Source: Escherichia coli
GTDB taxonomy: Bacteria > Pseudomonadota > Gammaproteobacteria > Enterobacterales > Enterobacteriaceae
Assembly (NCBI RefSeq): GCF_022846255.1
Contig: NZ_AP025682.1
DNA length: 64,000 bases
Reading direction: 5' to 3' (one strand)
Under the pieces are notes generated by a model. That model made no database searches and had not been told where the DNA came from. It saw only the letters and a list, made by a program, of their open reading frames with translations. Of the stretch, positions 2,968-45,658 are shown one piece after another (within the stretch, counting starts at the first letter, position 1; each line of letters opens with the position of its first letter). Position numbers and translations under genes: made by a program.

Positions 2968-5238
2968 ATGATGAAAGTATTAATTGTTGAAAGCGAGTTT
3001 CTCCATCAAGACACCTGGGTCGGTAACGCCGTTGAGCGTCTGGCAGATGCTTTAAGCCAGCAAAATGTTACCGTGATTAAATCCACCTCCTTTGATGATG
3101 GTTTTGCCATTCTCTCTTCAAACGAAGCCATTGACTGCCTGATGTTCAGCTATCAAATGGAACATCCGGACGAACATCAAAACGTCAGACAATTGATCGG
3201 TAAGCTTCATGAGCGCCAACAAAACGTGCCGGTCTTCCTGTTGGGCGATCGGGAAAAAGCCCTCGCCGCAATGGACCGGGATCTGCTGGAGCTTGTCGAT
3301 GAATTCGCCTGGATTCTGGAAGATACTGCCGACTTTATCGCCGGACGCGCCGTTGCCGCGATGACCCGCTACCGCCAGCAGCTGTTGCCGCCACTGTTCA
3401 GCGCGCTGATGAAATATAGCGACATCCATGAATATTCCTGGGCAGCGCCAGGCCACCAGGGCGGCGTTGGTTTTACTAAAACACCCGCCGGACGTTTCTA
3501 CCATGACTACTATGGTGAAAATCTGTTCCGCACCGACATGGGCATCGAACGCACTTCCCTCGGTTCTTTGCTTGACCATACTGGCGCATTTGGCGAAAGC
3601 GAAAAATATGCCGCACGCGTATTTGGTGCCGATCGCTCCTGGTCGGTAGTCGTCGGTACTTCCGGCTCTAACCGCACCATCATGCAGGCTTGCATGACCG
3701 ATAACGATGTCGTGGTCGTTGACCGTAACTGCCATAAATCCATCGAACAAGGCTTGATGCTGACAGGCGCGAAACCGGTCTACATGGTGCCAAGCCGCAA
3801 CCGCTACGGCATTATCGGGCCAATCTATCCGCAGGAAATGCAACCTGAAACCTTGCAGAAGAAAATCAGTGAAAGCCCGCTGACCAAAGACAAAGCCGGG
3901 CAAAAACCGTCTTACTGCGTGGTGACCAACTGCACCTATGACGGCGTGTGTTATAACGCTAGAGAAGCACAGGATCTGCTGGAAAAAACCTCCGATCGTC
4001 TGCACTTTGACGAAGCCTGGTACGGCTATGCACGTTTCAACCCGATCTATGCCGATCACTATGCCATGCGCGGCGAACCTGGCGATCACAACGGTCCTAC
4101 CGTTTTCGCCACCCACTCCACCCACAAACTGCTGAATGCGCTGTCCCAGGCCTCTTATATTCATGTACGTGAAGGTCGTGGGGCGATTAACTTCTCCCGC
4201 TTCAACCAGGCCTACATGATGCATGCCACCACCTCCCCGCTGTATGCCATCTGCGCATCCAACGACGTGGCGGTGTCGATGATGGACGGCAACAGCGGCC
4301 TGTCACTGACCCAGGAAGTGATCGACGAAGCGGTTGATTTCCGTCAGGCGATGGCGCGGCTATATAAAGAGTTCACCGCTGACGGTAGCTGGTTCTTCAA
4401 ACCGTGGAACAAAGAAGTCGTCACCGACCCACAAACCGGCAAAACCTATGACTTTGCTGACGCACCAACCAAACTGCTGACCACCGTTCAGGACTGCTGG
4501 GTCATGCATCCGGGCGAAAGCTGGCACGGCTTCAAAGATATTCCGGATAACTGGAGTATGCTCGACCCAATTAAAGTCAGCATCCTTGCTCCGGGAATGG
4601 GTGAAGATGGTGAACTGGAAGAAACCGGTGTTCCGGCGGCGCTGGTCACTGCCTGGCTTGGTCGCCACGGCATTGTGCCTACCCGCACCACTGACTTCCA
4701 AATTATGTTCCTGTTCTCTATGGGCGTAACCCGTGGGAAATGGGGGACTCTGGTTAACACCCTTTGCTCCTTCAAACGCCACTATGACGCCAACACACCG
4801 CTGGCGCAGGTGATGCCGGAACTTGTTGAACAATATCCTGACACTTACGCGAACATGGGGATTCACGATCTGGGTGACACCATGTTTGCCTGGCTGAAAG
4901 AAAACAACCCTGGCGCACGGTTGAACGAAGCCTATTCCGGCCTGCCGGTGGCGGAAATCACCCCGCGTGAAGCGTACAACGCGATTGTCGACAACAATGT
5001 CGAACTGGTATCCATTGAAAACCTGCCAGGACGCATCGCGGCAAACTCAGTTATCCCGTATCCGCCAGGAATCCCGATGCTGCTGTCTGGTGAAAACTTC
5101 GGCGATAAAAACAGTCCGCAAGTAAGTTATTTACGCTCGCTGCAATCCTGGGACCATCATTTCCCTGGATTTGAACACGAAACAGAAGGGACAGAAATTA
5201 TTGATGGTATTTACCACGTTATGTGTGTGAAAGCGTAA
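2968..5238 (+). CDS. adiA: biodegradative (acid-inducible) arginine decarboxylase
   Basis: ORF track 756 aa; recognised as AdiA (PLP-dependent Orn/Lys/Arg decarboxylase fold); the start may be the second ATG at 2971. Confidence 0.9.
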   Translation: MMKVLIVESEFLHQDTWVGNAVERLADALSQQNVTVIKSTSFDDGFAILSSNEAIDCLMFSYQMEHPDEHQNVRQLIGKLHERQQNVPVFLLGDREKALAAMDRDLLELVDEFAWILEDTADFIAGRAVAAMTRYRQQLLPPLFSALMKYSDIHEYSWAAPGHQGGVGFTKTPAGRFYHDYYGENLFRTDMGIERTSLGSLLDHTGAFGESEKYAARVFGADRSWSVVVGTSGSNRTIMQACMTDNDVVVVDRNCHKSIEQGLMLTGAKPVYMVPSRNRYGIIGPIYPQEMQPETLQKKISESPLTKDKAGQKPSYCVVTNCTYDGVCYNAREAQDLLEKTSDRLHFDEAWYGYARFNPIYADHYAMRGEPGDHNGPTVFATHSTHKLLNALSQASYIHVREGRGAINFSRFNQAYMMHATTSPLYAICASNDVAVSMMDGNSGLSLTQEVIDEAVDFRQAMARLYKEFTADGSWFFKPWNKEVVTDPQTGKTYDFADAPTKLLTTVQDCWVMHPGESWHGFKDIPDNWSMLDPIKVSILAPGMGEDGELEETGVPAALVTAWLGRHGIVPTRTTDFQIMFLFSMGVTRGKWGTLVNTLCSFKRHYDANTPLAQVMPELVEQYPDTYANMGIHDLGDTMFAWLKENNPGARLNEAYSGLPVAEITPREAYNAIVDNNVELVSIENLPGRIAANSVIPYPPGIPMLLSGENFGDKNSPQVSYLRSLQSWDHHFPGFEHETEGTEIIDGIYHVMCVKA

Positions 5239-17840: not shown

Positions 17841-18629
17841 ATGCAAACGATTATCCGTGTCGAGAAGCTCGCCAAAACCTTCAATCAGCATCAGGCGCTG
17901 CACGCGGTTGATCTGAACATTCATCACGGTGAAATGGTGGCTCTGCTTGGGCCGTCGGGTTCCGGCAAATCCACCCTTTTACGTCACTTAAGCGGTTTGA
18001 TTACCGGCGATAAATCTGCCGGTAGCCATATCGAGCTGCTGGGCCGCACAGTCCAGCGCGAAGGCCGCCTGGCCCGCGATATCCGCAAAAGCCGCGCCAA
18101 CACCGGCTACATCTTCCAACAATTCAACCTGGTGAATCGCCTGAGCGTACTGGAGAACGTGCTGATTGGCGCGCTCGGCAGCACGCCATTCTGGCGCACC
18201 TGTTTTAGCTACTTCACCCGCGAGCAGAAACAGCGCGCGTTACAGGCGCTGACCCGCGTTGGCATGGTGCACTTTGCCCATCAGCGCGTTTCCACACTCT
18301 CCGGCGGCCAGCAACAGCGTGTGGCGATTGCCCGCGCGCTGATGCAGCAGGCGAAGGTGATTCTGGCCGATGAACCCATCGCCTCGCTGGACCCGGAATC
18401 AGCGCGCATCGTGATGGACACCCTGCGCGACATCAACCAGAACGACGGCATTACCGTGGTCGTCACGCTGCATCAGGTGGATTACGCCCTGCGCTACTGC
18501 GAACGCATCGTCGCCCTGCGCCAGGGGCACGTCTTCTACGACGGCAGCAGCCAACAGTTTGATAACGAACGTTTTGACCATCTCTACCGCAGCATTAACC
18601 GCGTCGAAGAGAACGCGAAAGCTGCCTGA
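17841..18629 (+). CDS. phnC: phosphonate ABC transporter ATP-binding protein
   Basis: ORF track 262 aa; Walker [13 protein letters not shown] signature LSGGQQQR. Confidence 0.9.
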
Positions 18630-39799: not shown

Positions 39800-41850
39800 T
39801 GAGCGCGCTCAACTCCCTGCCATTACCGGTGGTCAGGCTGCTGGCGTTCTTTCATGAAGAGTTAAGCGAGCGGCGACCAGGGCGCGTGCCACAGACGATG
39901 CAACTCTGGGTAGGTTGCCTGCTGGTGATTCTGATCTCGATGACTTTTGAGATCCCTTTTGTGGCGTTATCACTGGCAGTGCTGTTTTACGGTATTCAGT
40001 CGAACGCGTTTTACACCAAATTTGTCGCGATCTTGTTTGTGGTTGCCACGGTGCTGGAGATCGCCAGCCTGTTTTTGATCTACAAATGGTCATATGGCGA
40101 ACCGTTGATCCGATTGATCATCGCCGGGCCGATCCTGATGGGCTGCATGTTTTTGATGCGCACCCATCGGCTGGGACTGGTCTTTTTCGCCGTCGCCATT
40201 GTCGCTATTTACGGGCAAACCTTCCCCGCTATGCTCGACTATCCGGAAGCGGTCGTGCGCTTAACGCTGTGGTGTATCGTTGTTGGCCTCTATCCAACCT
40301 TGCTGATGACGTTAATCGGCGTGCTGTGGTTTCCCAGTCGTGCCATTACGCAGATGCATCAGGCGCTTAATGATCGGCTTGATGATGCCATTAGCCACCT
40401 GACGGACAGCCTCGCACCGCTACCCGAAACGCGGATTGAAAGAGAGGCGCTGGCGCTGCAAAAACTCAATGTCTTTTGCCTCGCGGATGATGCCAACTGG
40501 CGAACCCAGAGCGCATGGTGGCAAAGCTGCGTGGCAACGGTAACCTACATTTACTCGACGCTGAATCGCTACGATCCCACCTCTTTTGCTGATTCTCAGG
40601 CAATTATTGAATTCCGACAAAAATTAGCTTCAGAAATCAACAAGCTGCAGCATTCCATTACCGAAGGTCAGTGCTGGCAAAGCGACTGGCGGATCAGTGA
40701 AAGTGAAGCGATGACGGCACGGGAATGTAACCTGGAGAATATCTGCCAGACGCTGTTACAGCTTGGTCAGATGGACCCGAATACGCCGCCAACGCCCGCA
40801 GCCAAACCGCCATCAATGGTCGCCGATGCTTTTACCAATCCAGACTATATGCGCTACGCGGTAAAAACGCTGCTCGCCTGTTTGATCTGTTACACCTTCT
40901 ACAGCGGCGTGGACTGGGAAGGCATTCATACCTGTATGCTGACCTGCGTGATCGTCGCTAATCCAAATGTCGGTTCGTCGTACCAGAAGATGGTGCTGCG
41001 TTTTGGTGGGGCCTTTTGCGGCGCGATTCTGGCGCTGTTATTCACGCTACTGGTCATGCCCTGGCTGGACAATATTGTCGAATTGCTGTTTGTGCTGGCA
41101 CCGATTTTCCTGTTGGGCGCATGGATTGCCACCAGCTCTGAACGCTCTTCTTATATCGGCACACAGATGGTGGTCACCTTCGCGCTCGCCACGCTCGAAA
41201 ACGTTTTTGGCCCGGTGTACGACCTGGTGGAAATTCGCGATCGCGCTCTGGGTATCATCATTGGTACCGTGGTGTCGGCGGTGATTTACACCTTTGTCTG
41301 GGCTGAAAGCGAAGCGCGCACGCTGCCGCAAAAACTGGCTGGCGCGCTGGGTATGTTGAGTAAAGTAATGCGGATCCCACGCCAGCAGGAAGTCACGGCT
41401 CTGCGCACTTATCTGCACATTCGCATAGGTCTGCATGCGGCGTTTAATGCCTGTGAAGAGATGTGCCAACGCGTGGTGCTGGAGCGTCAACTGGACAGCG
41501 AAGAACGCGCATTACTGATTGAACGTTCGCAAACGGTTATTCGTCAGGGCCGCGATATTCTTCACGCCTGGGATGCCACCTGGAACTCGGCGCAGGCGCT
41601 GGATAACGCACTACAGCCGGACAGAGCAGGTCAGTTTGCCGACGCCCTGGAGAAATACGCTGCCGGTGTGGCTACCGCACTCAGTCATTCTCCTCAAATA
41701 ACGTTAGAAGAGACATCCGCCTCGCAGGCCATTCTGCCCACCTTATTAAAACAGGAGCAACACGTCTGCCAGCTTTTCGCCCGCTTGCCAGACTGGACAG
41801 CCCCGGCATTAACGCCCGCCACGGAACAGGCACAAGGAGCCACGCAATGA
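39799..41850 (+). CDS. mdtO: multidrug efflux inner-membrane component
   Basis: ORF track 683 aa; 1-nt overlap with mdtN. Confidence 0.88.
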   Translation: MSALNSLPLPVVRLLAFFHEELSERRPGRVPQTMQLWVGCLLVILISMTFEIPFVALSLAVLFYGIQSNAFYTKFVAILFVVATVLEIASLFLIYKWSYGEPLIRLIIAGPILMGCMFLMRTHRLGLVFFAVAIVAIYGQTFPAMLDYPEAVVRLTLWCIVVGLYPTLLMTLIGVLWFPSRAITQMHQALNDRLDDAISHLTDSLAPLPETRIEREALALQKLNVFCLADDANWRTQSAWWQSCVATVTYIYSTLNRYDPTSFADSQAIIEFRQKLASEINKLQHSITEGQCWQSDWRISESEAMTARECNLENICQTLLQLGQMDPNTPPTPAAKPPSMVADAFTNPDYMRYAVKTLLACLICYTFYSGVDWEGIHTCMLTCVIVANPNVGSSYQKMVLRFGGAFCGAILALLFTLLVMPWLDNIVELLFVLAPIFLLGAWIATSSERSSYIGTQMVVTFALATLENVFGPVYDLVEIRDRALGIIIGTVVSAVIYTFVWAESEARTLPQKLAGALGMLSKVMRIPRQQEVTALRTYLHIRIGLHAAFNACEEMCQRVVLERQLDSEERALLIERSQTVIRQGRDILHAWDATWNSAQALDNALQPDRAGQFADALEKYAAGVATALSHSPQITLEETSASQAILPTLLKQEQHVCQLFARLPDWTAPALTPATEQAQGATQ

Positions 41851-43313
41851 TCAATCGTCAACTTTCACGTCTGCTGTTGTGCAGCATTCTCGGCAGCACG
41901 ACGCTGATTTCCGGCTGTGCCCTGGTACGTAAGGATTCTGCGCCTCATCAACAGCTCAAACCGGAGCAAATCAAACTGGCCGATGATATTCATCTTGCCA
42001 GCTCCGGCTGGCCGCAGGCGCAGTGGTGGAAACAACTCAATGACCCGCAGCTGGATTCGCTGATCCAACGGACGCTAAGTGGTTCACACCCCCTCGCCGA
42101 AGCGAAACTGCGGGAAGAAAAAGCGCAGTCCCAGGCCGATTTGTTAGATGCCGGTTCACAATTACAGGTCGCAGCGTTAGGGATGCTCAACCGCCAACGC
42201 GTCTCGGCGAACGGCTTTTTAAGCCCTTATGCGATGGATGCGCCAGCACTGGGTATGGACGGGCCGTACTATACGGAAGCCACAGTCGGTTTGTTTGCCG
42301 GACTGGATCTCGATTTGTGGGGTGTGCATCGCTCAGCGGTTGCTGCCGCCATTGGCGCGCATAATGCCGCGCTGGCAGAAACCGCAGCAGTAGAGCTATC
42401 GCTGACCACGGGCGTAGCGCAGCTTTATTACAGTATGCAGGCCAGCTATCAGATGCTCGATCTGTTAGAACAAACTCGCGATGTGATTGATTACGCGGTG
42501 AAAGCGCACCAGAGTAAAGTGGCGCACGGTCTGGAAGCGCAAGTGCCTTTCCACGGCGCGCGGGCACAGATTCTGGCGGTCGATAAACAAATTGCTGCCG
42601 TTAAAGGGCAAATCACCGAAACGAGAGAATCTCTGCGCGCATTGATTGGCGCGGGCGCCAGCGATATGCCGGAGATCAAACCGGTGGCATTACCGCGAGT
42701 CCAGACCGGCATTCCGGCAACGCTCTCTTATGAGTTGCTCGCCAGACGCCCGGATCTGCAAGCCATGCGCTGGTATGTTCAGGCGTCATTAGATCAGGTG
42801 GATTCCGCGCGGGCGTTGTTCTACCCGAGCTTTGATATCAAAGCGTTTTTCGGCCTGGATTCTATCCACCTGGATACCTTATTCAAAAAAACCAGTCGCC
42901 AGTTCAACTTCATCCCGGGTCTGAAATTGCCGCTGTTTGACGGTGGACGGTTGAATGCCAATCTCGAAGGCACGCGCGCCGCCAGCAACATGATGATTGA
43001 ACGTTACAACCAGTCAGTACTGAACGCGGTGCGCGACGTTGCCGTCAACGGCACGCGTCTGCAAACGCTTAACGACGAGCGAGAGATGCAGGCTGAACGC
43101 GTGGAAGCAACGCGCTTCACCCAGCGCGCTGCCGAGGCCGCCTACCAGCGCGGCTTAACCAGCCGCTTACAGGCCACCGAAGCCCGGTTGCCAGTGCTTG
43201 CCGAGGAGATGTCATTACTGATGCTGGACAGCCGCCGGGTGATCCAAAGCATTCAGTTGATGAAATCGCTGGGCGGCGGGTATCAGGCGGCTCCCGTCGT
43301 CGAGAAAAAATAA
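41847..43313 (+). CDS. mdtP: multidrug efflux outer-membrane factor lipoprotein
   Basis: ORF track 488 aa; lipobox LISGC; overlaps the mdtO end. Confidence 0.88.
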   Translation: MINRQLSRLLLCSILGSTTLISGCALVRKDSAPHQQLKPEQIKLADDIHLASSGWPQAQWWKQLNDPQLDSLIQRTLSGSHPLAEAKLREEKAQSQADLLDAGSQLQVAALGMLNRQRVSANGFLSPYAMDAPALGMDGPYYTEATVGLFAGLDLDLWGVHRSAVAAAIGAHNAALAETAAVELSLTTGVAQLYYSMQASYQMLDLLEQTRDVIDYAVKAHQSKVAHGLEAQVPFHGARAQILAVDKQIAAVKGQITETRESLRALIGAGASDMPEIKPVALPRVQTGIPATLSYELLARRPDLQAMRWYVQASLDQVDSARALFYPSFDIKAFFGLDSIHLDTLFKKTSRQFNFIPGLKLPLFDGGRLNANLEGTRAASNMMIERYNQSVLNAVRDVAVNGTRLQTLNDEREMQAERVEATRFTQRAAEAAYQRGLTSRLQATEARLPVLAEEMSLLMLDSRRVIQSIQLMKSLGGGYQAAPVVEKK

Positions 43314-43320
43314 AATGTCT

Positions 43321-43355
43321 ACCGCGTGATGGCTGTCACGCGGTATTTCGTTTCG
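43321..43355 (+). terminator. mdtP terminator hairpin
   Basis: accgcgtga-tggctg-tcacgcggt followed by atttcgtttcg. Confidence 0.55.
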
Positions 43356-43400
43356 TCACGTCAAAACTGACGACAGCCTGTTTTTCGTCAGAGTTTTGAA
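43355..43400 (+). promoter_or_regulatory. upstream activating palindromes (FhlA-type UAS) of the fdhF promoter
   Basis: Inverted repeats tcaaaactgacga / tcgtcagagttttga about 70 to 115 nt upstream of the sigma-54 element. Confidence 0.45.
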
Positions 43401-43443
43401 TAAATAGTGCCCGTAATATCAGGGAATGACCCCAAATAAAATG

Positions 43444-43460
43444 TGGCATAAAAGATGCAT
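43444..43460 (+). promoter_or_regulatory. sigma-54 (-24/-12) promoter of fdhF
   Basis: tGGcataaaagatGCa: GG at 43445..43446 and GC at 43457..43458 with the canonical 10-nt spacing. Confidence 0.65.
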
Positions 43461-43510
43461 ACTGTAGTCGAGAGCGCGTATGCGTGATTTGATTAACTGG
43501 AGCGAGACCG

Positions 43511-45658
43511 ATGAAAAAAGTCGTCACGGTTTGCCCCTATTGCGCGTCAGGTTGCAAAATCAACCTGGTCGTCGATAACGGCAAAATCGTCCGGGCGGAG
43601 GCAGCGCAGGGGAAAACCAACCAGGGTACCCTGTGTCTGAAGGGTTATTATGGCTGGGACTTCATTAACGATACCCAGATCCTGACCCCGCGCCTGAAAA
43701 CCCCCATGATCCGTCGCCAGCGTGGCGGCAAACTCGAACCTGTTTCCTGGGATGAGGCACTGAATTACGTTGCCGAGCGCCTGAGCGCCATCAAAGAGAA
43801 GTACGGTCCGGATGCCATCCAGACGACCGGCTCCTCGCGTGGTACGGGTAACGAAACCAACTATGTAATGCAAAAATTTGCGCGCGCCGTTATTGGTACC
43901 AATAACGTTGACTGCTGCGCTCGTGTCTGACACGGCCCATCGGTTGCAGGTCTGCACCAATCGGTCGGTAATGGCGCAATGAGCAATGCTATTAACGAAA
44001 TTGATAATACCGATTTAGTGTTCGTTTTCGGGTATAACCCGGCGGATTCCCACCCAATCGTGGCGAATCACGTAATTAACGCTAAACGTAACGGGGCGAA
44101 AATTATCGTCTGCGATCCGCGCAAAATTGAAACTGCGCGCATTGCTGACATGCACATTGCATTGAAAAACGGCTCGAACATCGCGCTGTTGAATGCGATG
44201 GGCCATGTCATTATTGAAGAAAATCTGTACGACAAAGCGTTCGTCGCTTCCCGTACAGAAGGCTTTGAAGAGTATCGTAAAATCGTTGAAGGCTACACGC
44301 CGGAGTCGGTTGAAGATATCACCGGCGTCAGCGCCAGTGAGATTCGTCAGGCGGCATGGATGTATGCCCAGGCGAAAAGCGCCGCCATCCTGTGGGGCAT
44401 GGGTGTAACCCAGTTCTACCAGGGCGTGGAAACCGTGCGTTCTCTGACCAGCCTCGCGATGCTGACCGGTAACCTCGGTAAGCCACATGCGGGTGTTAAC
44501 CCGGTTCGTGGTCAGAACAACGTACAGGGTGCCTGCGATATGGGCGCGCTGCCGGATACGTATCCGGGATACCAGTACGTGAAAGATCCGGCTAACCGCG
44601 AGAAATTCGCCAAAGCCTGGGGCGTGGAAAGCCTGCCCGCTCATACCGGTTATCGCATCAGCGAGCTGCCGCACCGCGCAGCGCATGGTGAAGTGCGTGC
44701 CGCGTACATTATGGGCGAAGATCCGCTACAAACTGACGCGGAGCTGTCGGCAGTACGTAAAGCCTTTGAAGATCTGGAACTGGTCATCGTTCAGGACATC
44801 TTTATGACCAAAACCGCGTCGGCGGCGGATGTCATTTTACCGTCAACGTCGTGGGGCGAGCATGAAGGCGTGTTTACTGCGGCTGACCGTGGCTTCCAGC
44901 GTTTCTTTAAAGCAGTTGAACCGAAATGGGATCTGAAAACGGACTGGCAGATTATCAGTGAAATCGCCACCCGTATGGGTTATCCGATGCACTACAACAA
45001 CACCCAGGAGATCTGGGATGAGTTGCGTCATCTGTGCCCGGATTTCTACGGTGCGACTTACGAGAAAATGGGCGAACTGGGCTTCATTCAGTGGCCTTGC
45101 CGCGATACTTCAGATGCCGATCAGGGGACTTCTTATCTGTTTAAAGAGAAGTTTGATACCCCGAACGGTCTGGCGCAGTTCTTCACCTGCGACTGGGTAG
45201 CGCCAATCGACAAACTCACCGACGAGTACCCGATGGTACTGTCAACGGTGCGTGAAGTTGGTCACTACTCTTGCCGTTCGATGACCGGTAACTGTGCGGC
45301 ACTGGCGGCGCTGGCTGATGAACCTGGCTACGCACAAATCAATACCGAAGACGCCAAACGTCTGGGTATTGAAGATGAGGCATTGGTTTGGGTGCACTCG
45401 CGTAAAGGCAAAATTATCACCCGTGCGCAGGTCAGCGATCGTCCGAACAAAGGGGCGATTTACATGACCTACCAGTGGTGGATTGGTGCCTGTAACGAGC
45501 TGGTTACCGAAAACTTAAGCCCGATTACGAAAACGCCGGAATACAAATACTGCGCCGTGCGCGTCGAGCCGATCGCCGATCAGCGCGCCGCCGAGCAGTA
45601 TGTGATTGACGAGTACAACAAGTTGAAAACTCGCCTGCGCGAAGCGGCACTGGCGTAA
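43511..45658 (+). CDS. fdhF: formate dehydrogenase H, selenocysteine-containing molybdoenzyme (in-frame UGA 43928..43930 read as Sec)
   Basis: ORF track splits it into 43511..43930 and 43979..45658, both in one frame; Cys-rich N-terminal Fe-S motif; SECIS hairpin directly after the UGA; total 715 codons. Confidence 0.9.
43931..43975 (+). other. SECIS stem-loop for selenocysteine insertion in fdhF mRNA
   Basis: cacggcccatcggttgcaggtctgcaccaatcggtcggtaatggc immediately 3' of the in-frame TGA. Confidence 0.75.

Follow-up and report, generated by a model that had tools for sequence, protein, structure and literature searches.

How is the selenoprotein gene fdhF of E. coli switched on, and how much of the answer can be read from the DNA in front of it? 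Its product, formate dehydrogenase H, is the selenoprotein of formate hydrogenlyase. The fdhF promoter is among the founding examples of sigma-54 promoters outside nitrogen control, and fdhF-lacZ is the standard formate-responsive reporter. We analysed a stretch of 64,000 nucleotides of the E. coli chromosome (contig NZ_AP025682.1; hereafter the window), in which the original prediction had placed a sigma-54 promoter with an upstream palindromic enhancer ahead of this gene. The reading we favor, with a probability of roughly 95%, is that the region is the native formate-inducible control region of E. coli fdhF, consisting of a sigma-54 promoter and an FhlA enhancer about 100 bp upstream.

The locus and its sigma-54 promoter

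In 5419 of 5426 complete E. coli genomes, positions 43300-43560 have a match of at least 95% identity, where the annotation runs from the end of mdtP into the start of fdhF. The gene order of K-12 MG1655 (mdtO, mdtP, fdhF, yjcO, gltP) is the same arrangement, on the opposite strand. The mdtP-fdhF intergenic region is 197 bp long (43314-43510), and 195 of these bases are identical to K-12. The two exceptions, at 43321 (in the stem of the mdtP terminator) and 43435 (in the spacer), lie outside the motifs; neither the sigma-54 motif nor any enhancer half-site is altered. The promoter and its enhancer are thus long known and not new: locus and sequence are those of K-12 fdhFp, from which nothing of substance differs beyond these two strain polymorphisms. 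The K-12 promoter and its FhlA upstream activating sequence were reportedly described by Birkmann et al. 1987, Birkmann & Bock 1989, Schlensog et al. 1994, and Leonhartsberger et al. 2000. The features that concern us are the following:

43320-43345, with a tail to 43355: intrinsic terminator of mdtP, a stem of 10-11 bp (TACCGCGTGA / TCACGCGGTA) followed by TTTCGTTTCG
43351..43373, + strand: enhancer (upstream activating sequence) block A, TTTCGTCA-CGTCA-AAAC-TGACG-A, at -119 to -97 from the predicted start
43359..43372: core palindrome of block A, CGTCA-AAAC-TGACG, cgtcaaaactgacg = CGTCAAAACTGACG, at -111 to -98 with its centre at -104.5
43381..43400, + strand: enhancer block B, TTTTTCGTCAG and then aGTTTTGAa, with a fourth CGTCA half-site at 43386-90
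43410..43428: block C, a conserved spacer block, CCCGTAATATCAGGGAAT, midway between enhancer and promoter
43444..43459, + strand: sigma-54 (-24/-12) promoter TGGCATAAAAGATGCA, with GG at -25/-24 and GC at -13/-12
43470, + strand: predicted transcription start, 12 nt after the C of the GC, equivalent to NC_000913.3 position 4299407, giving a 41-nt leader
43499..43502, + strand: Shine-Dalgarno GGAG, 8 nt before the ATG
43511..45658, + strand: fdhF coding sequence, 715 codons, with an in-frame UGA (selenocysteine 140) at 43929-43931
43923-43977: SECIS_2 (Rfam, 87.1 bits), which starts just before the in-frame UGA (codon 140) and extends downstream

A reading of the region as a riboswitch or small RNA was rejected, as an Rfam scan of 43250-44150 returned the fdhF SECIS inside the gene only.

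A GG-N10-GC motif had been claimed at 43444..43459, some 50 nt upstream of the fdhF ATG, and the position proved exact. In the element tGGcataaaagatGCa, exactly 10 nt separate the doublets GG (43445-46) and GC (43457-58); the element is co-oriented with fdhF and ends 51 nt before the ATG at 43511. The loose sigma-54 consensus is unusable alone as evidence, since it occurs at chance frequency: allowing at most one mismatch, 5 were found vs. 6.6 expected in 64 kb of shuffled sequence. The promoter scan that had been suggested as a check was run with a matrix of RpoN counts from 186 promoters, printed in PMC7658346, whose extended consensus is TGGCAC-N5-TTGCW. With this matrix, the fdhF site scored 13.8 of a maximum of 21 bits and ranked third among about 128,000 positions in the window. 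Among the top three matches it alone is intergenic and ahead of a co-oriented gene, and it is the best intergenic match in the window.

Two intragenic sites outscore the fdhF promoter, one at 18084-18099 (-), TGGCGCGGCTTTTGCG, in a phn gene, and the other at 41756-41771 (-), TGGCAGACGTGTTGCT, antisense in mdtO. These sites, together with the chance frequency of the loose consensus, are what could be said for the GG-N10-GC being a chance match, with a sigma-70 promoter driving fdhF. Neither mdtO nor the phn gene, however, is mentioned in the main text of the sigma-54 ChIP-seq study PMC4591121. The fdhF site itself is occupied in vivo: the 17-mer GTGGCATAAAAGATGCA (43443-43459, the motif with the preceding G) is letter for letter site OS41 of that study, a sigma-54 ChIP-seq peak on the fdhF strand with a fold-above-threshold of 41, marked "C" for experimentally confirmed in EcoCyc (PMC4591121). 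The motif is also conserved in 79 of 81 upstream regions, as detailed below. A sigma-70 promoter scan of 43200-43600 found no sigma-70-like promoter, and such a promoter for fdhF was rejected on this ground. A fortuitous motif is accordingly the kind of explanation to which we give next to no credence. Genomic SELEX adds that the RpoN holoenzyme binds the fdhF-mdtP spacer in vitro (PMC8743547). The sigma-54 assignment is thus upheld by the identity with OS41, by binding of the spacer in SELEX, by the matrix rank, and by conservation.

The start at 43470 is a prediction from motif geometry. It agrees with Table 1 of PMC4591121, where the predicted start is 19 bp downstream of the motif centre, leaving 41 bp to fdhF. 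An imperfect inverted repeat (AAAAGATGCATAC / GTATGCGTGATTT, 43450-43462 / 43478-43490, 77% complementary) spans the -12 element and the early leader; as its left arm is upstream of the predicted start, no mRNA hairpin is possible.

Dependence on sigma-54, on FhlA, and on formate comes from the literature. In Salmonella, the orthologous sequence TGGCATAAAACATGCATA is bound by sigma-54, and fdhF expression is 29-fold sigma-54-dependent, with FhlA as the assigned activator (PMC3844500); a Salmonella review also lists the gene as FhlA-activated (PMC4987338). In Proteus, formate induces the fdhF promoter, and mutation of fhlA or rpoN lowers its activity (PMC7658346). FhlA senses formate and binds upstream of fdhF (PMC11291172, PMC11841067), and E. 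coli fdhF has been placed in the formate-FhlA regulon (PMC11841067).

The enhancer and its activator

Block A contains three CGWCA half-sites, two as tandem direct copies (43354-58 and 43359-63) and one as an inverted copy (43368-72). The core CGTCAAAACTGACG is a perfect palindrome with 5-nt arms around a 4-nt centre (5+4+5), and we infer it to be the primary FhlA dimer site. Block B is built from the same material. The octamer TTTCGTCA of block A (43351-58) is repeated there 32 bp, or three helical turns, away, and the right part of block B is an inverted copy of the core centre (TCAAAACT at 43361-68 and AGTTTTGA at 43392-99, complementary at 8 of 8 positions). The element within it, tcgtcagagttttga = TCGTCAGAGTTTTGA at 43385-43399, has by itself only 3-nt arms in E. 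coli (TCA-N6-TGA). Altogether the half-site cluster spans -119 to -70. In 1989 Birkmann & Bock reportedly placed an upstream activating sequence that responds to formate some 110 bp ahead of the start, a position with which block A agrees. Earlier still, in 1987, Birkmann et al. are said to have found that fdhF depends on ntrA (rpoN), and that an rpoN deletion abolishes its expression.

Two inverted-repeat elements had been claimed here. The first stands as a perfect palindrome; the second is better described as a half-site block, a poor palindrome alone in E. coli. Their positions were as claimed, except that the conserved enhancer begins 4-8 bp further left, at the octamer of block A. The claim that they lie at the distance expected of an enhancer holds as well, since the palindrome falls inside the range of 70-150 bp upstream that is usual for such elements (PMC3844500).

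Two copies of CGWCA-N4-TGWCG lie in the window, compared to 0.33 expected per 64 kb. The second copy, CGACAACAATGTCG at 4989-5002, is probably a chance match, since none of the 15 best sigma-54 matrix sites in the window is nearby.

The case for FhlA was extended by comparing the K-12 regulatory regions of other FhlA-controlled operons: hycA-hypA, hydN, and hyfA. Upstream of hydN, CGTCA-CTAG-TGTCG is found about 70 bp upstream of a TGGCAT motif, and upstream of hyfA, CGACA-CGGG-TGTCG is found about 104 bp upstream of the sigma-54 motif. By base counting in the printed sequences, the distances from palindrome to GG are 69.5 and 103.5 bp, respectively, as against 79.5 bp at fdhF, while the 5+4+5 palindrome is common to all three. 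The hycA-hypA intergenic region differs from fdhF in that its three CGWCA half-sites stand in other arrangements and serve two divergent promoters, being located between two divergent sigma-54 motifs. Counts of TCGWCA are 3 at fdhF, 3 at hycA-hypA, and 2 at hydN, when 0.19-0.28 are expected; hyfA is enriched weakly (1 vs. 0.33). Thus, the promoters of the formate regulon (hycA, hypA, hydN-hypF, and hyfA) resemble that of fdhF in having sigma-54 -24/-12 elements with clustered CGWCA half-sites about 70-105 bp upstream. As judged from these sequences, the CGWCA half-site, often as a 5+4+5 palindrome, is the shared enhancer element of FhlA-controlled operons. The published FhlA matrix of 13 sites has a core, GWC-N6-GWC, that is in agreement with it.

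That matrix, 14 nt long (TGWC-N6-GWCA), is a poor guide to the site all the same: CGTCAAAACTGACG scores 8.2 of 17.7 bits and ranks 103rd in the window, a score that is not discriminating, although the GTC-N6-GAC core fits. Another model is the FhlA consensus CATTTCGTACGAAATG, quoted in the review PMC4987338 from Leonhartsberger et al. 2000. At fdhF its best match is 9 of 16, the chance level, equalled at about 400 other positions of the window (one strand scanned), and at hycA-hypA, hydN, and hyfA it matches 9-10 of 16, so that none of the four regions rises above chance. Only its TTTCGT half is present at fdhF, three times (at 43346, 43351, and 43383). Because the consensus is at chance level in all four regions, it is a poor scanning tool, and a mismatch to it does not count against function. 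With the matrix score weak and the consensus at chance, sequence models alone would not assign FhlA to the fdhF site.

Could the enhancer of a genuine sigma-54 promoter, then, serve mainly another protein, either the FhlA paralog HyfR or a NorR-like binder of GT-N7-AC? The near-identical palindrome upstream of hyfA belongs to the operon that encodes HyfR, whose site cannot be told from that of FhlA by sequence; the weak fit of the FhlA matrix points the same way, and NorR, too, has a short inverted repeat of a similar kind as its consensus. However, FhlA is the activator that the literature names for fdhF in E. coli, Salmonella, and Proteus alike, and the same palindrome stands before hydN, a member of the FhlA regulon. 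The GTCA-N4-TGAC of the core moreover amounts to GT-N8-AC, not the GT-N7-AC of NorR. A different principal activator therefore seems to us very unlikely. That FhlA is the activator, as originally proposed, is sustained by the dependence reported in the literature, by conservation at fixed spacing, and by recurrence of the palindrome at hydN and hyfA.

Conservation and spacing in the Enterobacteriaceae

A scan with one genome per species returned 80 fdhF loci, and the conservation counts below are over 81 Enterobacteriaceae upstream regions. The loci come from Escherichia, Salmonella, Citrobacter, Klebsiella, Kluyvera, Enterobacter, Kosakonia, Pluralibacter, Atlantibacter, Arsenophonus, and others. 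The sigma-54 motif, as TGGYA-N7-YGCW, is kept in 79 of 81 regions, and the palindrome in 77 in its loose form and in 73 in its strict form. Alignment of the regions gave sharply bounded conserved blocks within variable sequence, the flanks being unconserved:

43351-43373: block A, TTTCGWCACGTCA-N4-TGACGA, conserved at about 90% or more outside the N4 centre, with unconserved sequence to the left
43381-43391: block B, TTTTTCGTCAG, in which TTCGTCAG is conserved at 90% or more, and then GTTTTGA at about 80%
43410-43428: block C, CCCGTAATATCAGGGAAT, mostly at 80-90%, with a few columns at 40-70%
43444-43461: block D, the sigma-54 motif, at 90% or more except in the spacer columns 43451-43455 (about 40-90%)
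just before the ATG: block E, the Shine-Dalgarno region, at about 90% or more, including CTGGAGCGAGACCGATG

The consensus of block A is TCGWCACGTCA-N4-TGWCGA, with the columns TCG.CACGTCA and TGACGA at 90% or more in the 81 sequences. The element of block B reads GTCA-N6-TGAC in most other genera.

A homolog of mdtP is upstream in only 13 of the 80 loci, which implies that the conserved upstream sequence belongs to fdhF and travels with it. This bears on whether the palindromes are protein sites at all, or part of the mdtP terminator or of some other RNA or DNA hairpin. Their location invites the thought: they come directly after the mdtP stop codon and the terminator hairpin, whose T-tail TTTCGTTTCG runs into the first TTTCG of block A. 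Yet blocks A and B are conserved and the hairpin, outside Escherichia, is not; in the 67 loci with a different upstream gene, both blocks are kept and their distance to the sigma-54 motif is fixed. In addition, a 5-bp stem is too weak for a terminator, and no Rfam family matches the intergenic region. A hairpin function thus has a vanishingly small chance of being correct. As an mdtP terminator, the palindromes were ruled out outright, the real terminator being the separate hairpin at 43320-43345 and the blocks being conserved without mdtP.

The spacing between enhancer and promoter is constrained as well. The palindrome centre is 79.5 bp from the first G of the GG in 62 loci, 80.5 bp in 7, 70.5 bp in 7, and 71.5 bp in 1, and these values form two classes, 79.5-80.5 bp (69 loci) and 70.5-71.5 bp (8 loci), about one helical turn apart. 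The distance from promoter to ATG, on the other hand, takes many values between 51 and 84. The variable promoter-ATG distance and the quantised enhancer-promoter spacing suggest that indels are tolerated downstream of the promoter but between the elements only as about one turn. On sequence grounds this is consistent with face-of-helix dependence, short of proof. The short class is from related genomes (Pluralibacter and allies), probably one clade, so that the phase argument may rest on a single indel. Cross-genus conservation and the fixed spacing show that the elements are real.

Some genomes depart from this pattern. The sigma-54 motif, the palindrome, or both are degraded or missing, with fdhF otherwise conserved, in Entomohabitans teleogrylli, Leclercia sp. 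29361, Enterobacter sp. BIGb0383, and Phytobacter massiliensis (loci L074, L078, L081, and L055; locus positions about 2250-2500). The promoter in these four regions could be decaying or rewired, or the gene could be a second fdhF copy. Another record, labelled 'Chryseobacterium sp. 18061' (L029, CACSKA010000007.1), contains an enterobacterial fdhF locus with 96% protein identity and promoter spacing of the Pluralibacter type, and is probably a mislabelled or contaminated assembly.

Block C is explained neither by the sigma-54 matrix nor by the FhlA half-site pattern. By eye, the spacer contains an IHF-like match, TATCAG-GGAA-TGA compared to WATCAA-N4-TTR, which with 2 mismatches in 9 specified positions is too weak to call. 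The neighbor of block C reads TACCCAC in most genera and resembles a NarL heptamer. A tentative and rather doubtful suggestion is that block C is the site of an additional factor, either a protein that bends DNA and so sets the geometry of the loop, or a nitrate- or oxygen-responsive repressor.

Mechanism and significance

The promoter would be expected to work as follows. RNA polymerase containing sigma-54 would bind at 43444-43459 as a closed complex that is unable to start alone. FhlA, an AAA+ ATPase activated by intracellular formate, would bind the cluster of CGWCA half-sites at 43351-43400 and reach the polymerase by looping out about 80 bp of intervening DNA. ATP hydrolysis would then open the promoter, and transcription would begin near 43470. 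The individual half-sites contacted by FhlA, as well as the exact start nucleotide, are inferred from the sequence. Sigma-54 occupancy is taken from the literature, and what the present analysis establishes is the elements themselves, the identity with OS41, the conservation, the fixed spacing, and the recurrence of the palindrome.

The scheme is shared with glnAp2 and its activator NtrC and with norV and NorR: a closed complex at GG-N10-GC, inverted-repeat enhancers 70-150 bp upstream, looping, and ATP hydrolysis. The fdhF activator differs from NtrC and NorR in that formate is sensed through the N-terminal domain, in place of phosphorylation or nitric oxide, and in the half-site, which is CGWCA.

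In sum, a real enhancer-dependent promoter can be recognised from raw sequence. The fdhF, hydN, and hyfA enhancers are all caught by the simple pattern CGWCA-N4-TGWCG, while the published FhlA matrix and consensus predict poorly. Across the Enterobacteriaceae, the spacing of enhancer and promoter varies by no more than a base pair or else by a whole helical turn. If an additional factor does act at block C, then together with the quantised spacing it would mean that this textbook promoter has a third, uncharacterised component.
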